Notes under the pieces: model-generated | The model's input: only the letters and a program-made list of their open reading frames with translations | What the model was told of the DNA's origin: nothing | Databases searched by the model: none | Shown here: piece after piece, positions 1,451-9,067 of the stretch | Numbering within the stretch: the stretch's first letter is position 1 | How the letters are laid out: each line of letters begins with the position of its first letter | IMG/VR virus record: IMGVR_UViG_3300014157_000001 | Location: 1 to 61,132 of that record | Origin: a virus | Taxonomy: Duplodnaviria; Caudoviricetes | Length of the DNA stretch: 61,132 nucleotides | Reading direction: 5' to 3' (one strand) | Made by a program: the position numbers and the translations under genes

Positions 1451-2014
1451 TCAGGTTGCACGGGCGGCGCGCCTTTCCTCCTGGCCCTCGATGTGCCGGT
1501 GGGCCAGGTAGGCGAGCGTCCACGTGGACCGTCGCCCGTCGGGGGTTCGGCAGTGTCCGTTGCTGCACAGGGCCCGCCCGGTGCGGTGGTGCCAGAGCAG
1601 GCCCGCGCAGCCGCAGCCGGGGCACAGGTGGCGGCAGACGATGTTCGCGTTGCCGGTGAGGACGGCGTGCTCGAGGTACTGGCGGTAGACGAGGATGTCG
1701 CGGCGGCGTTGGACGGTGGCGTCGTCGAACTCGGTGTTGCGGATCATCCAGTCGTAGACGGCGGGCGCGTCTTTGGGGAGCGGCTCGATCGTGTCCGGTG
1801 ATTCGGTGGCCATGAAGGCGCGGATTTCGCGGACGGTGGCGTCGATGTGGGAGAGGGCGTCGACGTTGAGGGGGGCGGTGCGTTCGATGGAGCGGACGGG
1901 GGCGGTGCGGGCGCCGGTGTGTGATCGTCGGGGCAGTTCCACGAAGTGGTCGACGAGGTGCGCGAGTTGCGCGGCGGCTTGTTCTGCGTGGCTGTCCGTG
2001 GTCCCCATGGGCAT
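1451..2014 (-). CDS. hypothetical protein with C-terminal zinc ribbon (candidate regulator)
   Basis: CPGCGC...CSNGHC motifs, coding-type codon bias. Confidence 0.6.
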   Translation of the reverse strand: MPMGTTDSHAEQAAAQLAHLVDHFVELPRRSHTGARTAPVRSIERTAPLNVDALSHIDATVREIRAFMATESPDTIEPLPKDAPAVYDWMIRNTEFDDATVQRRRDILVYRQYLEHAVLTGNANIVCRHLCPGCGCAGLLWHHRTGRALCSNGHCRTPDGRRSTWTLAYLAHRHIEGQEERRAARAT

Positions 2015-2253
2015 ATCCCGTCCCCTGTGGGCCATCTCCGGGGTGCGCGGGGGCGTCCACACTGCCGAAGACGCGCGCACGGGGATGGTCCGGTTTCTGT
2101 CACTCCGGGTCAATCCGGACGCCCCATCATGGCACTGGTGTGGCGGGAGGTGAACCGATCGTGGCAATCGATCAGCAGTGTGTGGCGGGTCTTCACATTA
2201 GACACACGGGCAAACGGGAAGAACCCCCGGCATATGCCGCCGGGTGGGGGTGG

Positions 2254-2529
2254 TCAGTCGGTGGCGGCGATCCGGGCGGCGCGGCGTGCCCCCTCCAGGA
2301 GAGCGACCAGCTGGGCACGTTGCGCGTCGTCGACGATGCCCTTCGCGGCGGCGCCGCCCATCGTCTTGACCGCGGTGTCCATGGCGACGTCGAACGCCGC
2401 CCGCACGACCGGGTCGGCGAGCGTCGCATGGCGCTCCACCATGGCCTGCTCGAGCATGTCGGCGAGGGGCCGCAGGATCGCTTCCTCGCCGCCGCCGTCG
2501 GGTGCGGGGGGTGGTGCGGGCTGGGTCAT
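2254..2529 (-). CDS. hypothetical protein
   Basis: MTQPAPP... with GGAG RBS, helical Ala-rich ORF. Confidence 0.6.
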   Translation of the reverse strand: MTQPAPPPAPDGGGEEAILRPLADMLEQAMVERHATLADPVVRAAFDVAMDTAVKTMGGAAAKGIVDDAQRAQLVALLEGARRAARIAATD

Positions 2530-3364
2530 GGTGTCGGCTCCCCCACGGTGACGGTGGGCGGTGGCCGCGCCGTTGCGGCCGCGGGCGGTACGCGGGTTCA
2601 ACGGGATGATGCGGGCGTCACCGGTACCCGGTGGGCCGGCCGGGCTGTCGCCCGTGGGGGCGGGTTCTGCTGCGGGCATGGCGTCTCCGCTCGTCCGGCA
2701 GAGGTTCGGGAAGGAAGTGGGTTCGTACCCGGCGTCTGTGTGGCGCCGGCCCCGGTTCCGTGGGCGCGGCTGCCAGTCCACGCTCGCGGAAGGCCACTGT
2801 GGCAGCAGAAGAGTTGTGAGGGGTAGGGCGGTGGGGGTTTTCTGCCCAAATCGTTGGCCAATGGTGGTGGATTCAGGCCGGGTCTGTTACCGGTCTTTGG
2901 GGTGACGGGCTGTCACATGAAGAAGGCCGCGGCCCTCGGTGGGGCGCGGCGGGGGCGGGCATGCCCGTCTGATGCCGGTGATTGTAGGCCGGGGCGCCGC
3001 CACGGGGGAAGACTGTGGGGGGAGTTGCCCGCACGGGGTCTGGGTGCGGGTGGGGACACCGGGCTGCGAAGGCCCGTCGGGGTCCCGGCGTCCCCTGGAC
3101 CGCACTTTTTCGTTACCGCCAGTACGGCACACACAGCGTGTGCACCATTCGGCACAGAGTGAACCTGTGGGGCGCAGGTTCACTCCTCCGGGTGACTCAA
3201 AAACCCCGGCAACAGCCCCGCAATCAACCTAATTTGCCCTATGCAAAATAGGGAACGGCCCCGCTCCTTCGCAGGTCGGGAAGCGGATGAACTGGCCTTC
3301 GGTGACGCCCTCTCATCGGCGTGCCGTTCCCAACCCACCCGTCACTCCTGGTAATTTGCTCGCC

Positions 3365-4510
3365 ATGAGTACCCCAGGCGCCGGAGAAGCGCGCGAAAAA
3401 CTGCTCGTCAACCTGACCCCGGAGCTACGCCGCGACCTGCGGATCCGGGCCGCCGAGCGCGGCCTCAACATGCAGGACGCCGCCGCCTCCGCCCTCAACC
3501 ACTGGTATGACACGGCCGACACCGCCGACGCCGACACCAAGGGCGCCAAGTCCTGGGGGGTGTTCCTTCCCGCCGGCGGACCCGACCGCTTCACGCAGGA
3601 ATGCGAGACACGCAAGGTCACCAAGGTGCAGGGCATGGCGCAGGCCATCACCCTGTGGCTGCAGGCGCACCCCTCTCCGGCCGAGCGGCTCGTCAACCAG
3701 CCCGTCAAAAGGATCCTGGTGGGCAATCAGAAGGGCGGCGTCGGCAAGACGTTCGTCGCCTCCGGCCTCGCCCAGGCCATGGCGGAGATGGGGCTGCGGG
3801 TCCTCCTGGTCGACTACGACCCGCAGGCCCACCTCACCAGCCGCATGCAGATCCCCGGCCTGCCCGACGGTGCGGACAGTCTCCTCACGCACATGCTCGG
3901 CGAGGGCAAGAAGCACCTCGTCCGCTCTCTGGTCTCCCTCCCCCACGAGCGGTTCGGCGGACGTCTGCACGTCCTCCCGGCGAGCAAGGACGCGTTCCTC
4001 ATGGACGCCAAGCTGGCCCTGCTACAGGTCGGCCGCGACATCTGCCTGGCCGGTGCGCTGGCGCCGCTCGAGGTCTCCTACGACGTCATCATCCTGGACG
4101 GGCCGCCGAACCTCGGTCTGGCCATAGACCTCGCCATCAACTACGTGCAGCGCCGCCCCGGCGAGCTGATCGACCACTCCGGGATCCTGATGCCGGTCTG
4201 GTCGGACCGCTCGTCGTTCGACGCGTACGGGATGCTCAACGAGCAGATCAATGCGCACACCCGGATGACCGGTTCGGTCGTCGACCAGCTCGGGTTCGTC
4301 GTCAATGCCTACGACTCCCGCAAGGGTGTCGTCACCCGCAGCTTCTACGACGGCTGGAACGAGCTGACCACGCCCGGTGTGCTGGCCACGCTGAAGGATG
4401 CCATCGAGGGCCGGGAGGCCTCCGACTATCAGGTGCCGCTGCTGGAGCACGCGCCCGAGTCGGGTCAGGCGGAGGTCATGCGGTCGCTGGCGAAGGAGCT
4501 CGCCGCGTGA
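3365..4510 (+). CDS. parA: ParA/Soj family partition ATPase with N-terminal RHH-like repeats
   Basis: deviant Walker A NQKGGVGKT, VDYDPQA, ILDGPPNLG; N-term LLVNLTPELRRDLRIRAAERGLNMQDAAASALNHW. Confidence 0.92.
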   Translation: MSTPGAGEAREKLLVNLTPELRRDLRIRAAERGLNMQDAAASALNHWYDTADTADADTKGAKSWGVFLPAGGPDRFTQECETRKVTKVQGMAQAITLWLQAHPSPAERLVNQPVKRILVGNQKGGVGKTFVASGLAQAMAEMGLRVLLVDYDPQAHLTSRMQIPGLPDGADSLLTHMLGEGKKHLVRSLVSLPHERFGGRLHVLPASKDAFLMDAKLALLQVGRDICLAGALAPLEVSYDVIILDGPPNLGLAIDLAINYVQRRPGELIDHSGILMPVWSDRSSFDAYGMLNEQINAHTRMTGSVVDQLGFVVNAYDSRKGVVTRSFYDGWNELTTPGVLATLKDAIEGREASDYQVPLLEHAPESGQAEVMRSLAKELAA

Positions 4511-6671: not shown

Positions 6672-8165
6672 TCAGAAGGCGGGGGTGAGTGGGGTGTCGC
6701 GGGCAGCGATGGCTTCCAGGGCGAGGGCCTGGTCGACGATCCGGTTGCTGTAGATGCGGCGGGTCTCGCGCTCGCCGAGTCCTTCGATGGCGAAGCGGAT
6801 CAGGGCGGGGTTCTGCATGGCGGCGCAGCGCAGGTCGATGATCTCGTCCCGGGTGAGGTCTTCGGGCCGGAGTTCGGGCTGCTCGTCGGCGGCCGGGGTG
6901 GTCTCGATGGCGGGGGCCTGCCGCTGCTGCTGGATGGTGGCGACGGCCTCGGCCATGGCCTGCCGCGCCTCCGGGCTCTGCGGGCCGCTGCTGTAGACCT
7001 CGGCGTCCTCGGCGTGGCGGGCGCGTTCGGCGGCCCGGGAGTCCTGCCACTCCTCGACCATGGCGCGCCGCTGGGCCGGGGTCGCCGTGCGCAGGGCCTT
7101 CGGAGACAGCCGGTAGGCGAGCACCCCGGACGGGCGGCGGACATCGGCAGCAGGGCCACGGGAGAGCTCAGCGGCAGCCCACACCTCGAGCGCGGTCCAG
7201 CCGGCGTCGGCGAAGTCCCGCACGATCCATGCGATCCGTGCACGGGAGGCCTTGGCGAGCCACGGCACCGTGGCGATGAGTTCGGCGGCGAGCTGGTAGC
7301 GGCGGCCGATCTTGTTGAGCTTTCGGGGGCCGCGGTTCTTCTGCTGCTTGGGGGTGGGGGAGGTCTTCTTCCCGCTTGCGAGCTTGCTCTCAGAGGGGGG
7401 GATAGAACTAGCTGCAGGAGAGGACGCTGAAGTACCACCCTCCATTGGGGTGCAACGAGACCCCGCCGAAAACGCGGTTTTGGAGCGGCGGCGGCGTACC
7501 TTCCGGGCGGCCTTCTTCGCGAGCTTCCCGAGGAGCTTCCGGGTCTCCTGGGCGGCACCGACCGGGCGGCGCGTTGCACCCTCGCCGACGGTACGGATAC
7601 CGAGCGCCTTGTCGAATGCGGCGGGGATGGTCCGCTCGAACTCGGAAGCGCGGCCGCCGACTCCGGAGATGCGGGTGCCCTTGGAGCGGTACACGAGGAG
7701 CCCGGCCTCCCGCAGCATCCCGAGGTGGTACTGCACGGTGCGCTCGGCGACCTTCAGTTTGCGGGCGAGGTAGTCGACGGAGGGGCGGCACTCCGTCAGT
7801 CCGGCGATCTCCTGGGCGATCTGAAGGGTCGTCGGCCCGAACTTCGGCCCGTGCGTCCGTGCGGGCTTGTAGAGGCCCTTGTGGGCGAGGCCGGCGACCC
7901 AGTGGACGGCGGTCATCCAGGAGTGGGCGCAGGTGGCGATGCGGCCGGTCGTGGCGTGCAGCCACTGGCTAGCTGCGATCACCGTGGGGAGCGCGCCACG
8001 ACCGTGCCGATCACTGTATTCGTTCGGGCGTTCGAATTCGGTGACGGAGGTGCGTGTTCCGTGGGTGGGTTCGGTGCCGTCAACGTCACCCGCGTGGGCG
8101 GAGATTCGGGATGTTTCGGGCGCTGCGGGGTGCTCGACCTGACAAGAGGGGGTGCGGTGCTGCAC
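6672..8165 (-). CDS. plasmid replication initiator (winged-HTH Rep)
   Basis: PSVDYLARKLKVAERTVQYHLGMLREAGLL wHTH; RRPSGVLAYRL C-terminal motif; near par locus; start uncertain. Confidence 0.7.
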   Translation of the reverse strand: MQHRTPSCQVEHPAAPETSRISAHAGDVDGTEPTHGTRTSVTEFERPNEYSDRHGRGALPTVIAASQWLHATTGRIATCAHSWMTAVHWVAGLAHKGLYKPARTHGPKFGPTTLQIAQEIAGLTECRPSVDYLARKLKVAERTVQYHLGMLREAGLLVYRSKGTRISGVGGRASEFERTIPAAFDKALGIRTVGEGATRRPVGAAQETRKLLGKLAKKAARKVRRRRSKTAFSAGSRCTPMEGGTSASSPAASSIPPSESKLASGKKTSPTPKQQKNRGPRKLNKIGRRYQLAAELIATVPWLAKASRARIAWIVRDFADAGWTALEVWAAAELSRGPAADVRRPSGVLAYRLSPKALRTATPAQRRAMVEEWQDSRAAERARHAEDAEVYSSGPQSPEARQAMAEAVATIQQQRQAPAIETTPAADEQPELRPEDLTRDEIIDLRCAAMQNPALIRFAIEGLGERETRRIYSNRIVDQALALEAIAARDTPLTPAF

Positions 8166-8190
8166 TATGTACCTGCCGTCCTCCGGACAT

Positions 8191-8383
8191 GAAAAAGCCC
8201 GGTCGGTGGTGAATGTGGTTCCGTCCAGAACCTGAAGTTCGCTCGAATCGACCGGCTGCCAACCGGAAGAGACGGGCCTTAGCTCGAAGCAGCCACTTCG
8301 AGCCGTGGAAGTCGGCCGTGGATCGGTGAGCCAACACCGAACAAGCGGCCAGCGGTTGAGGATGAGAGCTCCCTGCCAAGGGG
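8191..8383 (-). promoter_or_regulatory. structured rep leader: four UGGC-loop hairpins plus alternative terminator (candidate antisense-controlled attenuator)
   Basis: hairpins at 8252-8266, 8282-8303, 8323-8340, 8371-8382; U-tract at 8192-8196 on minus strand. Confidence 0.6.
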
Positions 8384-8416
8384 CACCCAAGACCTCCCGC
8401 TCAGGAAGTCACTACG

Positions 8417-9067
8417 TCATCTCTGATCTCCCTTAATGGGTGAGGTCTGCCCTACGCGGATAACGCGCGGGTGGTCTATGTCGGCACGGCGCTCCAACTC
8501 CTGCTGCCATGCCTCGTCAGTGGTACGGCGAGCGATCTCGCGCTCGACCGCCGCCAGTTCGGCCGCGTCGGCTGCTGCCTCCCGGCGCCTGTCGGCGGCC
8601 GTCTGTAGCCCGACCATGCGGTCGTGTGCCGCCAGCAGGTCGGCGGGGAGGGGGACGGCCTTGTAGTGCCGGCGGATCCGGCCCAGTTCCCAGCAGACGG
8701 TGCCCCATTGCTGCTTGCGGCGCGCCCGGTCTACGTCGCGGCGCATCTCCTCAAGGGCGCCGAGGTTGCACGCGTCCTCATACGCCTGGCCATCGAGGGC
8801 GACGAACCACTTGATGCGGGCACGGGACTTCGGAGGCCGGTCGGGAAGCAGGGCGCGAAGCCGCTCGATCTCCGGGGCGAGGAGCGCCCGGATCTGTACG
8901 GCGGCCGGGGCGGCGAGGTCTTCGAACTCCTGGTCCTCGGCGAGGGACGACCACACCGTGTCGGGCTGGAGTCGGTCCAGGCGCTCGTACTTCGTGCAGA
9001 AGGTGCGTACGGCGCGCTCGGCGTCCGCCTGCCACTCCTCGCGGGAGGGCCAGGCGCGGGCGCTCAT
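8417..9067 (-). CDS. hypothetical protein
   Basis: 216-aa helical ORF, ATGA coupling to the upstream gene. Confidence 0.7.
   Translation of the reverse strand: MSARAWPSREEWQADAERAVRTFCTKYERLDRLQPDTVWSSLAEDQEFEDLAAPAAVQIRALLAPEIERLRALLPDRPPKSRARIKWFVALDGQAYEDACNLGALEEMRRDVDRARRKQQWGTVCWELGRIRRHYKAVPLPADLLAAHDRMVGLQTAADRRREAAADAAELAAVEREIARRTTDEAWQQELERRADIDHPRVIRVGQTSPIKGDQR

Follow-up and report, generated by a model that had tools for sequence, protein, structure and literature searches.

An array of UUGGC-loop hairpins in the replication module of pZL12-like Streptomyces replicons: a candidate countertranscript and target-RNA system

The plasmids R1, IncB and IncK use a UUGGCG loop, whose behavior is explained by a U-turn, and the same hexamer, 5'-rUUGGCG-3', is reportedly the target-loop motif in control by the ColIb-P9 Inc RNA. 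In ColE1, several stem-loops kiss via loops of 6-7 nucleotides (nt), and single-base changes in these loops make new compatibility groups; in pT181, pIP501 and pAMbeta1, countertranscripts drive transcription attenuation. Replication control in the large plasmids and phage-plasmids of Streptomyces is described, in the portions of the literature available to us, as "rep plus a non-coding sequence", and the full-text literature searched held no report of an antisense RNA system for these replicons. Here we describe an array of hairpins upstream of the rep gene in the virus record IMGVR_UViG_3300014157_000001 (Duplodnaviria; Caudoviricetes), a 61-kb record with ~70% G+C whose whole stretch of 61,132 nt was analyzed and is called the window below.

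The array (~270 nt, 8450-8183) is most likely an RNA element and part of the replication module in pZL12-like replicons of Streptomyces, and on balance we favor the reading that the array and its complement form a countertranscript and target-RNA system controlling rep and incompatibility. Having no match in Rfam, the element counts as a new RNA family: at gathering score the whole window gave no matches, CopA, RNAI, ctRNA_pGA1 and ctRNA_pT181 included, and with the threshold relaxed to E 10 the sole hits were SNORA57 (18.4 bits) and sok (12.2 bits), both far below their cut-offs. Full-text literature on pZL12, Streptomyces plasmids and phage-plasmids likewise left the element undescribed, the original description of pZL12, with its possible mention of an inverted repeat, lying outside that search. 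The rep region of the window matches only Streptomyces plasmids of ~85-100 kb, including pSLE1 and pCQ3, and megablast against the phage collection returned no matches to it. The authors of pSLE1 modeled its annotation on that of the plasmid-phage pZL12, to which it is homologous and syntenic (PMC4487206).

A preliminary description of this DNA had named four hairpins, with loops UUGGCA, UUGGCU, UGGCUG and UUGGCAG. All four read directly from the sequence where they had been placed, and a fifth, H5, is added here. Hairpin coordinates are read on the minus (rep-sense) strand.

8401 to 8450, minus strand: conserved 5' block, GCAGACCUCACCC-AUUAAGGGAGAUC...GACGUAG...CUGA
8352 to 8400, minus strand: P1 stem, GCGG-GAGG (8400-8393) pairing with CCUC-AA-CCGC (8361-8352), H1 at its tip
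8383-8371, minus strand: H1, stem CCC/GGG, loop C-UUGGCA
8314 to 8350, minus strand: P2 outer stem, GGCCGC (8350-8345) pairing with ACGGCC (8319-8314), enclosing H2
8340-8323, minus strand: H2, stem UCGGUG/CACCGA, loop UUGGCU
8282 to 8303, minus strand: H3, 8-base-pair (bp) stem GCUCGAAG/CUUCGAGC, loop UGGCUG; recovered as well by the inverted-repeat search (I17)
8252 to 8266, minus strand: H4, stem CCGG/CCGG, loop UUGGCAG
8217 to 8232, minus strand: H5, GGUUC-UGGACG-GAACC, its stem conserved and its loop sequence free
8183 to 8205, minus strand: 3' domain, CGACCGG (8205-8199), GC and a run of five U (U5, 8196-8192), overlapped by P6
8202-8183, minus strand: P6 hairpin, CCGGGC-UUUUUCAU-GUCCGG, its U-rich loop being the U5 run in the window

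H4 has a shortened form in the window; in most homologues it is a hairpin of ~15 bp with a basal stem CCCGA/UCGAG. On the 3' side of H5 lies a C/A-rich, G-poor and seemingly unpaired tract, ACCACAUUCACCACC (8217-8200), longer in many homologues, which may resemble a Rho-loading site.

Conservation and covariation of the hairpins

Distant BLAST with positions 8080-8470 returned 50 plasmid records, all from Streptomyces and 67-79% identical to the element at full length, of which 23 cover at least 80% of the query. Scanning for the conserved motif added 24 loci on viral contigs and 121 stretches of genome contigs; most of the latter were chance pattern matches in unrelated taxa and were rejected, only those confirmed by nhmmer being retained. 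The profile search kept 52 loci, representing 47 unique elements. These always adjoin a Rep gene and a DciA-family gene and hold a constant position between a small open reading frame (ORF) and a rep-like gene, on linear plasmids of 210-892 kb and on circles of phage-plasmid size. A BLAST match was present in six of 401 Streptomyces genomes (the centre genome and 400 sampled evenly from the genus).

Comparison of homologous leaders, put forward in the preliminary description as a check, bears out the hairpins: across the 47 unique homologues the stems covary and the loops stay UUGGCG-like. Two covariance models were built from hand-checked structures and all loci were realigned to them. In H3, long H4 and H5, 96.3% of 947 cells pair, versus 86.6% when shuffled, and in P1/H1 with P2/H2 the figure is 99.0% (99% for P1 taken singly), percentages that are inflated because the alignments behind them follow the model. 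Compensating changes are seen in plain MAFFT alignments too. Both sides change in 15 of 28 pairs of H3-H5 and in 73 cells, versus 6.2 and 16.0 in shuffles, with a covariation score of 0.183 versus 0.048; none of 500 shuffles reaches any of these values, and sliding the partner by 1-3 columns leaves 15-44% pairing. P1/H1 and P2/H2 vary less in sequence: five of their 24 pairs change on both sides, versus 0.4.

In H1, GCCCC/GGGGC becomes GCUCCC/GGGAGC, and a G-C pair in H2 becomes A-U (L032, L031). Both sides change in six of eight pairs of H3 across 39 distinct rows, and in eight of 15 pairs of H4 (helices 2 and 3); in three rows GGUUC/GAACC of H5 becomes GCUUC/GAAGC. P6 recurs with several different covarying stems, with sense-strand G-U pairs in several stem types. 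Covariation thus marks the array hairpins as real, conserved structures. A conserved GCCCG...CGGGC closing helix, considered as a terminator, was rejected for want of a single compensating change.

Loop types and co-resident replicons

The stems of the four hairpins are mutually unrelated, and the loops are the part they share. A census on the sense strand of the 47 unique elements gives 34 of UUGGCG type, six of UUGACG type and seven flipped. The window carries the variants UUGGCA, UUGGCU, (G)UGGCU and UUGGCA; elements of UUGACG type have that hexamer in three or four of their four loops; and flipped elements show CGCCAA, UGCCAA and CUGCCA on the sense strand, which places UUGGC loops on the other strand. 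UUGG fits the YUNR loop motif and covarying stems keep loops of 5-8 nt, such that census and covariation agree with the earlier assignment of the UUGG(C) loops to the YUNR type; the motif is of U-turn type. Two further observations on this motif were set aside. TTGGCR 6-mers number 92 over the whole window against 56 expected, a surplus rejected as evidence on the array since it is spread through coding DNA, and a UUGGCG-like motif in the P6 loop was dropped, being present in only five of 47 elements.

How does this compare with the enterobacterial systems? The likeness to the IncI-alpha ColIb-P9 Inc RNA, to IncB and IncK RNAI and to the R1 CopA-CopT pair lies in the UUGGCG loop with CGCCAA on its complement (on the IncK side, CGCCAA is known here only from primers for IncK RNAI). 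It extends to an element upstream of rep whose loop is expected to set incompatibility. IncI-alpha, IncB and IncFII nevertheless have one target loop, whereas the array has 4-5 tandem hairpins, a rep start ~210 nt beyond them and an actinobacterial host. In those systems a leader peptide is translationally coupled to rep, or the loop forms a pseudoknot with a CGCC tract at the rep start, or both; the gap holding the array has no coding signal and only a 2-codon frame at its 5' end, and no GCCAA is conserved in the 320 nt toward rep. The strand of the motif differs too, seven of the 47 array elements carrying it on the other strand.

Strains holding two element-bearing plasmids offer a natural comparison of loops within one cell. 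Loops differ between the two plasmids in all five such strains of the plasmid collection, with the rest of each pair of elements 60-85% identical:

NBC_01240: UUGGCG in four loops versus UUGACG in four loops
NBC_00842: UUGGCG in four loops versus UUGACG in four loops
NBC_01369: UUGGCG in four loops versus UUGACG in four loops
NBC_00873: UUGGCG versus UUGACG in three of four loops
NBC_01238: UUGGCG versus flipped type

Random pairing at 34:6:7 would give discordance of ~0.44 and five of five by chance at ~0.02, a figure for independent events, which these are not: two pairs are near-duplicates, and the four UUGACG plasmids are related replicons of ~88-92 kb drawn from a single strain collection. 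Doubly occupied strains account for four of the six UUGACG elements, and one UUGACG strain showed no second element (one match among the 150 scored of ~14,000 candidates). Eight further plasmids examined for co-resident pairs were all from different strains. As evidence on compatibility, the loop difference between co-resident replicons is correlative and suggestive only, though as would be expected of a determinant of copy number and incompatibility. More telling is the G-to-A change that all loops of one lineage have undergone in concert. Here lies the likeness to ColE1 RNA I/RNA II, in that UUGGCG versus UUGACG separates co-resident replicons; the ColE1 type, however, needs no Rep protein and employs its RNA as primer, whereas the array has adjacent Rep and DciA-family genes and no match to Rfam RNAI.

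Loops that change together could also be read by a protein. That the hairpins act as DNA—extruded or single-stranded origin hairpins of iteron/long-inverted-repeat or ssi type, read by Rep or primase at a recognition site formed by the loop, as proposed for pWTY27, pFP11 and SCP2—seems to us decidedly unlikely. Streptomyces theta replicons are reported to consist of rep and an adjacent cis-required non-coding sequence, with RepA binding a long inverted repeat (PMC3583192). Here the gap is the sole large non-coding stretch adjoining rep, wobble-type mismatches occur on both strands, and the loops change in concert and can flip as a set, all of which would suit a DNA hairpin. Yet iterons are absent, the only direct repeats of 8-12 nt in 7900-8520 being two-copy families, and four unrelated stems provide no common half-site for a duplex-binding protein. 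This account also leaves unexplained the promoter motif and three-frame stops described below, and must accommodate a stretch that is present as RNA when its flanks are not.

The Rep proteins themselves bear on the choice. Two Rep clades (L004, L008, L157 and L161 versus the window, L001 and L005-L007), one of them annotated "cell wall protein" or "hypothetical", are only 25-31% identical in amino acids (aa) and sit behind arrays ~75% identical in DNA; the array thus seems far more conserved than the initiator, and the element appears to pass from one replicon type to another. Both clades go with the same loop type, an argument against co-evolution of Rep and loop, and intermediates exist with three of four loops changed (L125, L155). 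Together, one loop type with divergent Reps and these intermediates fit RNA-RNA pairing better than a loop-reading protein.

Transcription of the array and its connection to rep

Pairing of RNA with RNA would call for transcription of both strands. On the plus strand, one feature stands out at the rep-proximal side of the array:

8139 to 8168, plus strand: promoter-like motif, -35 CTGACA (8139-8144), 18-nt spacer, -10 CACTAT (8163-8168)

The motif, reported in the preliminary description exactly as it is found here, is kept in all 47 unique elements. The -35 is CTGACA in 46 and GTGACA in one, the -10 is CACTAT in 42 and CAAGAT in five, and the spacer is 18 nt in all 47, with variable sequence. 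Fixed length over variable sequence is a pattern typical of promoters, and the predicted start, ~8175, would direct transcription into the array.

On the sense strand, the 5' block carries the stops TAA (8435-8433), TGA (8419-8417), TAG (8414-8412) and TGA (8403-8401), as well as a Shine-Dalgarno-like GGGAG, behind which a start codon is separated from a stop by one codon. All three sense frames are closed before the array in 44 of 47 unique elements, as against six of 723 control windows of 52 nt within the element and, when that segment is read on the plus strand, five of 47. As part of the stop block had served as search pattern, loci found by BLAST only were counted separately; all 22 unique elements so derived, without that pattern, have the three-frame stops. 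Stops in three frames ahead of the array imply sense-strand mRNA entering it, and we read the block as a device that would clear ribosomes from incoming sense mRNA ahead of the structured part. Unrelated upstream ORFs of at least five families run into the 5' block, where they share the tail ...SPSKGDQVT.

Wobble pairs were considered as a test of the folding strand and gave a draw overall. The 52 pairs comprise 1717 Watson-Crick cells, 47 sense-strand G-U cells (31 of them at one terminal pair), 35 cells with G-U on the plus strand only and nine other mismatches. H3 and the H4 core favor the plus strand, H3 with no sense G-U and 17 sense C-A cells at five positions; at one further pair, 32 of 39 rows have C-A on the sense strand and seven have U-A or C-G instead, which fits G-U on the plus strand. 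P6, the end pair of H2 and H1 favor the sense strand. The plus strand had the lower minimum free energy in 26 of 34 homologues, a comparison made with no composition control. Both strands seem to have been kept foldable, as would be expected of a sense and antisense pair, although a mutational bias toward transitions would look alike.

RNA from the array has been sequenced, at modest depth and within a single study:

8184-8498, 8192-8425, 8191-8410 and 8257-8425, strand not given: RNA contigs from four soil metatranscriptome runs, 100% identical to the window, at depths of 2.2-5

Coverage is nil at 7600-8183, which includes the start of rep, and at 8499-8734, and these silent flanks argue against carry-over of DNA. 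Two contigs, at 8191 and 8192, end where the U5 run does, another ends at 8184, the foot of P6, and 8425, reached twice, falls in the conserved 5' block. Such ends fit a sense RNA stopping at the 3' domain and, less exactly, a plus-strand RNA from ~8175. A transcript of this region terminating at about 8192 had been anticipated; array RNA does end at 8184-8192, in contigs that carry no strand.

How might these pieces act together? In the system we favor, both strands of the array would be transcribed. Sense RNA would arrive from upstream genes, lose its ribosomes at the three-frame stop block and then fold into H1-H4, with their UUGGC(N) loops, and H5; most of it would end in the 3' domain (8192-8184), short of rep. 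The countertranscript, starting at ~8175 from the plus-strand promoter, would bear complementary (N)GCCAA loops, and loop-loop kissing at up to four equivalent sites would bind it to the sense RNA. Pairing would limit the transcription, or the usable RNA, that passes toward rep and the origin region; this limit would set copy number, with the loops as the incompatibility determinant. We infer the making of both strands, their pairing, the resulting termination or decay, and the dependence of rep on read-through.

That dependence brings the boundaries of the neighboring genes into play:

6672 to 7982, minus strand: rep, encoding an initiator-like helix-turn-helix protein (436 aa) from GTG 7982
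8417 to 9067, minus strand: upstream ORF of 216 aa, no Pfam family, its last codons entering the conserved 5' block
8018-8013, minus strand: conserved -10-like TACAGT, ~24 nt before the rep start

The rep gene begins at GTG 7982, not at ~8190. G+C at third codon positions (GC3) in the rep frame exceeds 0.9 only below ~7990, the signal of the upstream ORF fades at ~8500-8420, and no coding signal lies between ~7990 and 8420. From GTG 7982 the protein, which has weak helix-turn-helix matches in Pfam, is 66% identical to the helix-turn-helix protein of pSLE1, itself annotated upstream of a DciA-family gene, and its first residues match the annotated start there. The drop in GC3 at ~7990 and the annotated starts of homologues thus define rep as 6672-7982. 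ATG 8190 opens an ORF of only 34 codons, out of the rep frame, and the longest minus-strand ORF, 6672-8390 (572 aa), is over-extended and runs across the array. A non-coding gap of ~435 nt (7983-8416) separates rep from the small upstream ORF; the array sits 210-470 nt upstream of rep, and 8139-8383 falls within the gap. Placement of the array and its terminator just before rep, as first described, is wrong, for rep starts ~210 nt further on and has a -10-like TACAGT of its own. The sequence TTCGAAC...TACAGTG just 5' of the rep start is kept in six of seven compared spanning sequences, in two of these in degenerate form.

Two repeats were seen near the rep start. A 14-nt inverted repeat, 93% complementary (7946-7959 / 7991-8004), flanks GTG 7982 and would enclose the start in rep mRNA, where it may control translation of rep; pSLE1 shows a similar CGGTCGTGGCG/CGCCACGACCG pairing. 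Between the promoter motif and rep, the 8-mer TTCGGGCG (plus strand) recurs unchanged as a direct repeat at 8023-8030 and 8115-8122, 92 nt apart, and this segment may hold the real origin or an operator.

The 3' domain invites comparison with attenuation in pT181, pIP501 and pAMbeta1. The likeness lies in a countertranscript promoter inside the region upstream of rep (in the array, a motif only), in a sense RNA ending before rep (in the array, strandless contigs) and in the window's alternative stem with U5: CCGGUCG (8255-8249) can pair with CGACCGG (8205-8199), followed by GC and U5. In pT181 and pIP501, however, the terminator lies just 5' of the rep ribosome-binding site, whereas in the array the alternative and its U5 are unconserved and the site is ~210 nt from the rep start. 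A further difference from pT181, pIP501 and pAMbeta1 is the promoter-like motif that rep here has to itself beyond the stop site. The mutually exclusive terminator of the preliminary description thus exists as a pairing and a U run in the window, but not as a conserved feature; in most homologues the U-rich stretch is the loop of the covarying hairpin P6.

Several points weigh against the countertranscript system we favor, whose weak link is the connection to rep. Given the conserved TACAGT, rep may have its own promoter downstream of the array, and a countertranscript from ~8175 would not overlap mRNA from a promoter of that type. In 34 homologues the 320 nt toward rep hold no conserved GCCAA or UUGGC partner, and U5 with the H4-versus-terminator alternative is confined to the sub-lineage of the window and absent from most homologues. 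The RNA over the array could be a single RNA only, the contigs being strandless and from one study. Nor does the window sequence alone fold better than chance: its minimum free energy is -90.7 kcal/mol versus -86.9 +/- 5.4 for shuffles (z -0.71), and 50 of 200 shuffles fold as well. A scan of the window for consensus promoters and terminators made no calls, the plus-strand motif included. The structure-fitted alignments, the interdependent co-residence events and the UUGACG strain with one element belong on the same side of the ledger. With the single fold and the consensus scans null, the case rests on the comparison of homologues.

Some of these points suit a different account, which we consider unlikely: a single structured non-coding RNA with another job, either a stable fragment from the upstream operon's 3' untranslated region (UTR) or an RNA with a direct part in initiation, as primer or origin transcript, after the manner of ColE1 RNA II or of the non-coding RNA on which replication of RepA-less cluster A mycobacteriophage prophages depends, the opposite strand being an inhibitor or unused. 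A discrete RNA spans exactly the array, with sharp ends found in two runs each (8425 twice; 8191 and 8192); a processed 3' UTR would be in keeping with the stop block and with the 8425 end, which falls in the final codons of the upstream ORF; rep seems to own a promoter; and ~75% nt identity of the array contrasts with 25-31% aa identity between Rep clades. RNA-based origins also exist in plasmid prophages of actinobacteriophages (PMC7157519). The likeness to those RepA-less prophages (Wetzel et al. 2020, PMC7157519) is of a temperate actinobacteriophage living as a plasmid with a transcribed non-coding 400-500 bp in its maintenance module; in contrast to the present case, they have no Rep gene and their RNA lies beside parABS, and the two are likened by description only. 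What a single RNA leaves unexplained is the plus-strand promoter motif, invariant and directed into the array, and the tolerance of the helices for wobble on both strands with almost no other mismatch, and the constant adjacency of Rep and DciA-family genes speaks against it.

A plainer possibility, and a very improbable one in our view, is that the element is just a structure separating rep from the upstream operon, as transcriptional insulator or terminator, where convergent transcription stops read-through with no role in copy number. RNA does stop at 8184-8192 with rep uncovered, P6 covaries with sense-strand G-U pairs, and rep has its own -10-like motif. A terminator, however, needs no four hairpins with a conserved hexaloop, and the concerted loop changes and loop differences between co-resident replicons would go unexplained.

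Spread of the element and meaning for Streptomyces replicons

Taken overall, the interpretation first offered for this leader is partly supported. One of its suggestions, gating of the switch from plasmid to lytic replication, finds nothing that links it to the element, and the same array occurs in linear plasmids of 210-892 kb. Further afield in the window, a ParA/MinD-type ATPase gene (3287-4510, plus strand, opposite to rep; AAA_31, E 6e-24) is consistent with a plasmid maintenance module.

Some plasmids match the element only in part. Three records (H67-H69, including the 89,658-bp plasmid of S. ambofaciens ATCC 23877) match just the 3' module, ~8086-8245, at 82-93% identity; this module holds H5, P6 and the promoter motif, and other plasmids match the 5' part only. 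Partial matches of these two kinds suggest modular recombination within the element.

Public annotation shows the same boundary problem as the longest ORF of the window. Over-extended rep ORFs are found in L002 (pCQ3; 1606-3027) and L154-L156, the rep of pCQ3 being annotated from a TTG inside the -10 of the plus-strand promoter motif, and several genes annotated "transcriptional regulator" begin inside an array element. The boundaries given here correct this: public records and the longest ORF stretch rep across the array, and upstream ORFs gain a false shared tail.

Two larger proposals follow, both reaching beyond the reading favored above. It is possible, though we put it forward only tentatively, that the array founds an undescribed RNA family, a multivalent kissing-loop array in which 4-5 hairpins present one hexaloop. 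Such a family would be the master determinant of incompatibility and copy number from phage-plasmids of ~85-95 kb to linear plasmids of ~900 kb, would be swapped between unrelated Reps, and would found new groups by concerted one-base loop changes or by a flip of the whole set. In a bolder variant, the array RNA would be the initiation transcript of a Rep-assisted, RNA-gated origin.

If the countertranscript system is borne out, loop type—UUGGCG, UUGACG or flipped—would be a sequence rule that predicts which replicons can share a cell, and would offer a route to compatible sets of Streptomyces vectors. It would also mean that the U-turn hexaloop of the enterobacterial IncI, IncB and IncFII plasmids recurs, multiplied, in Actinobacteria.

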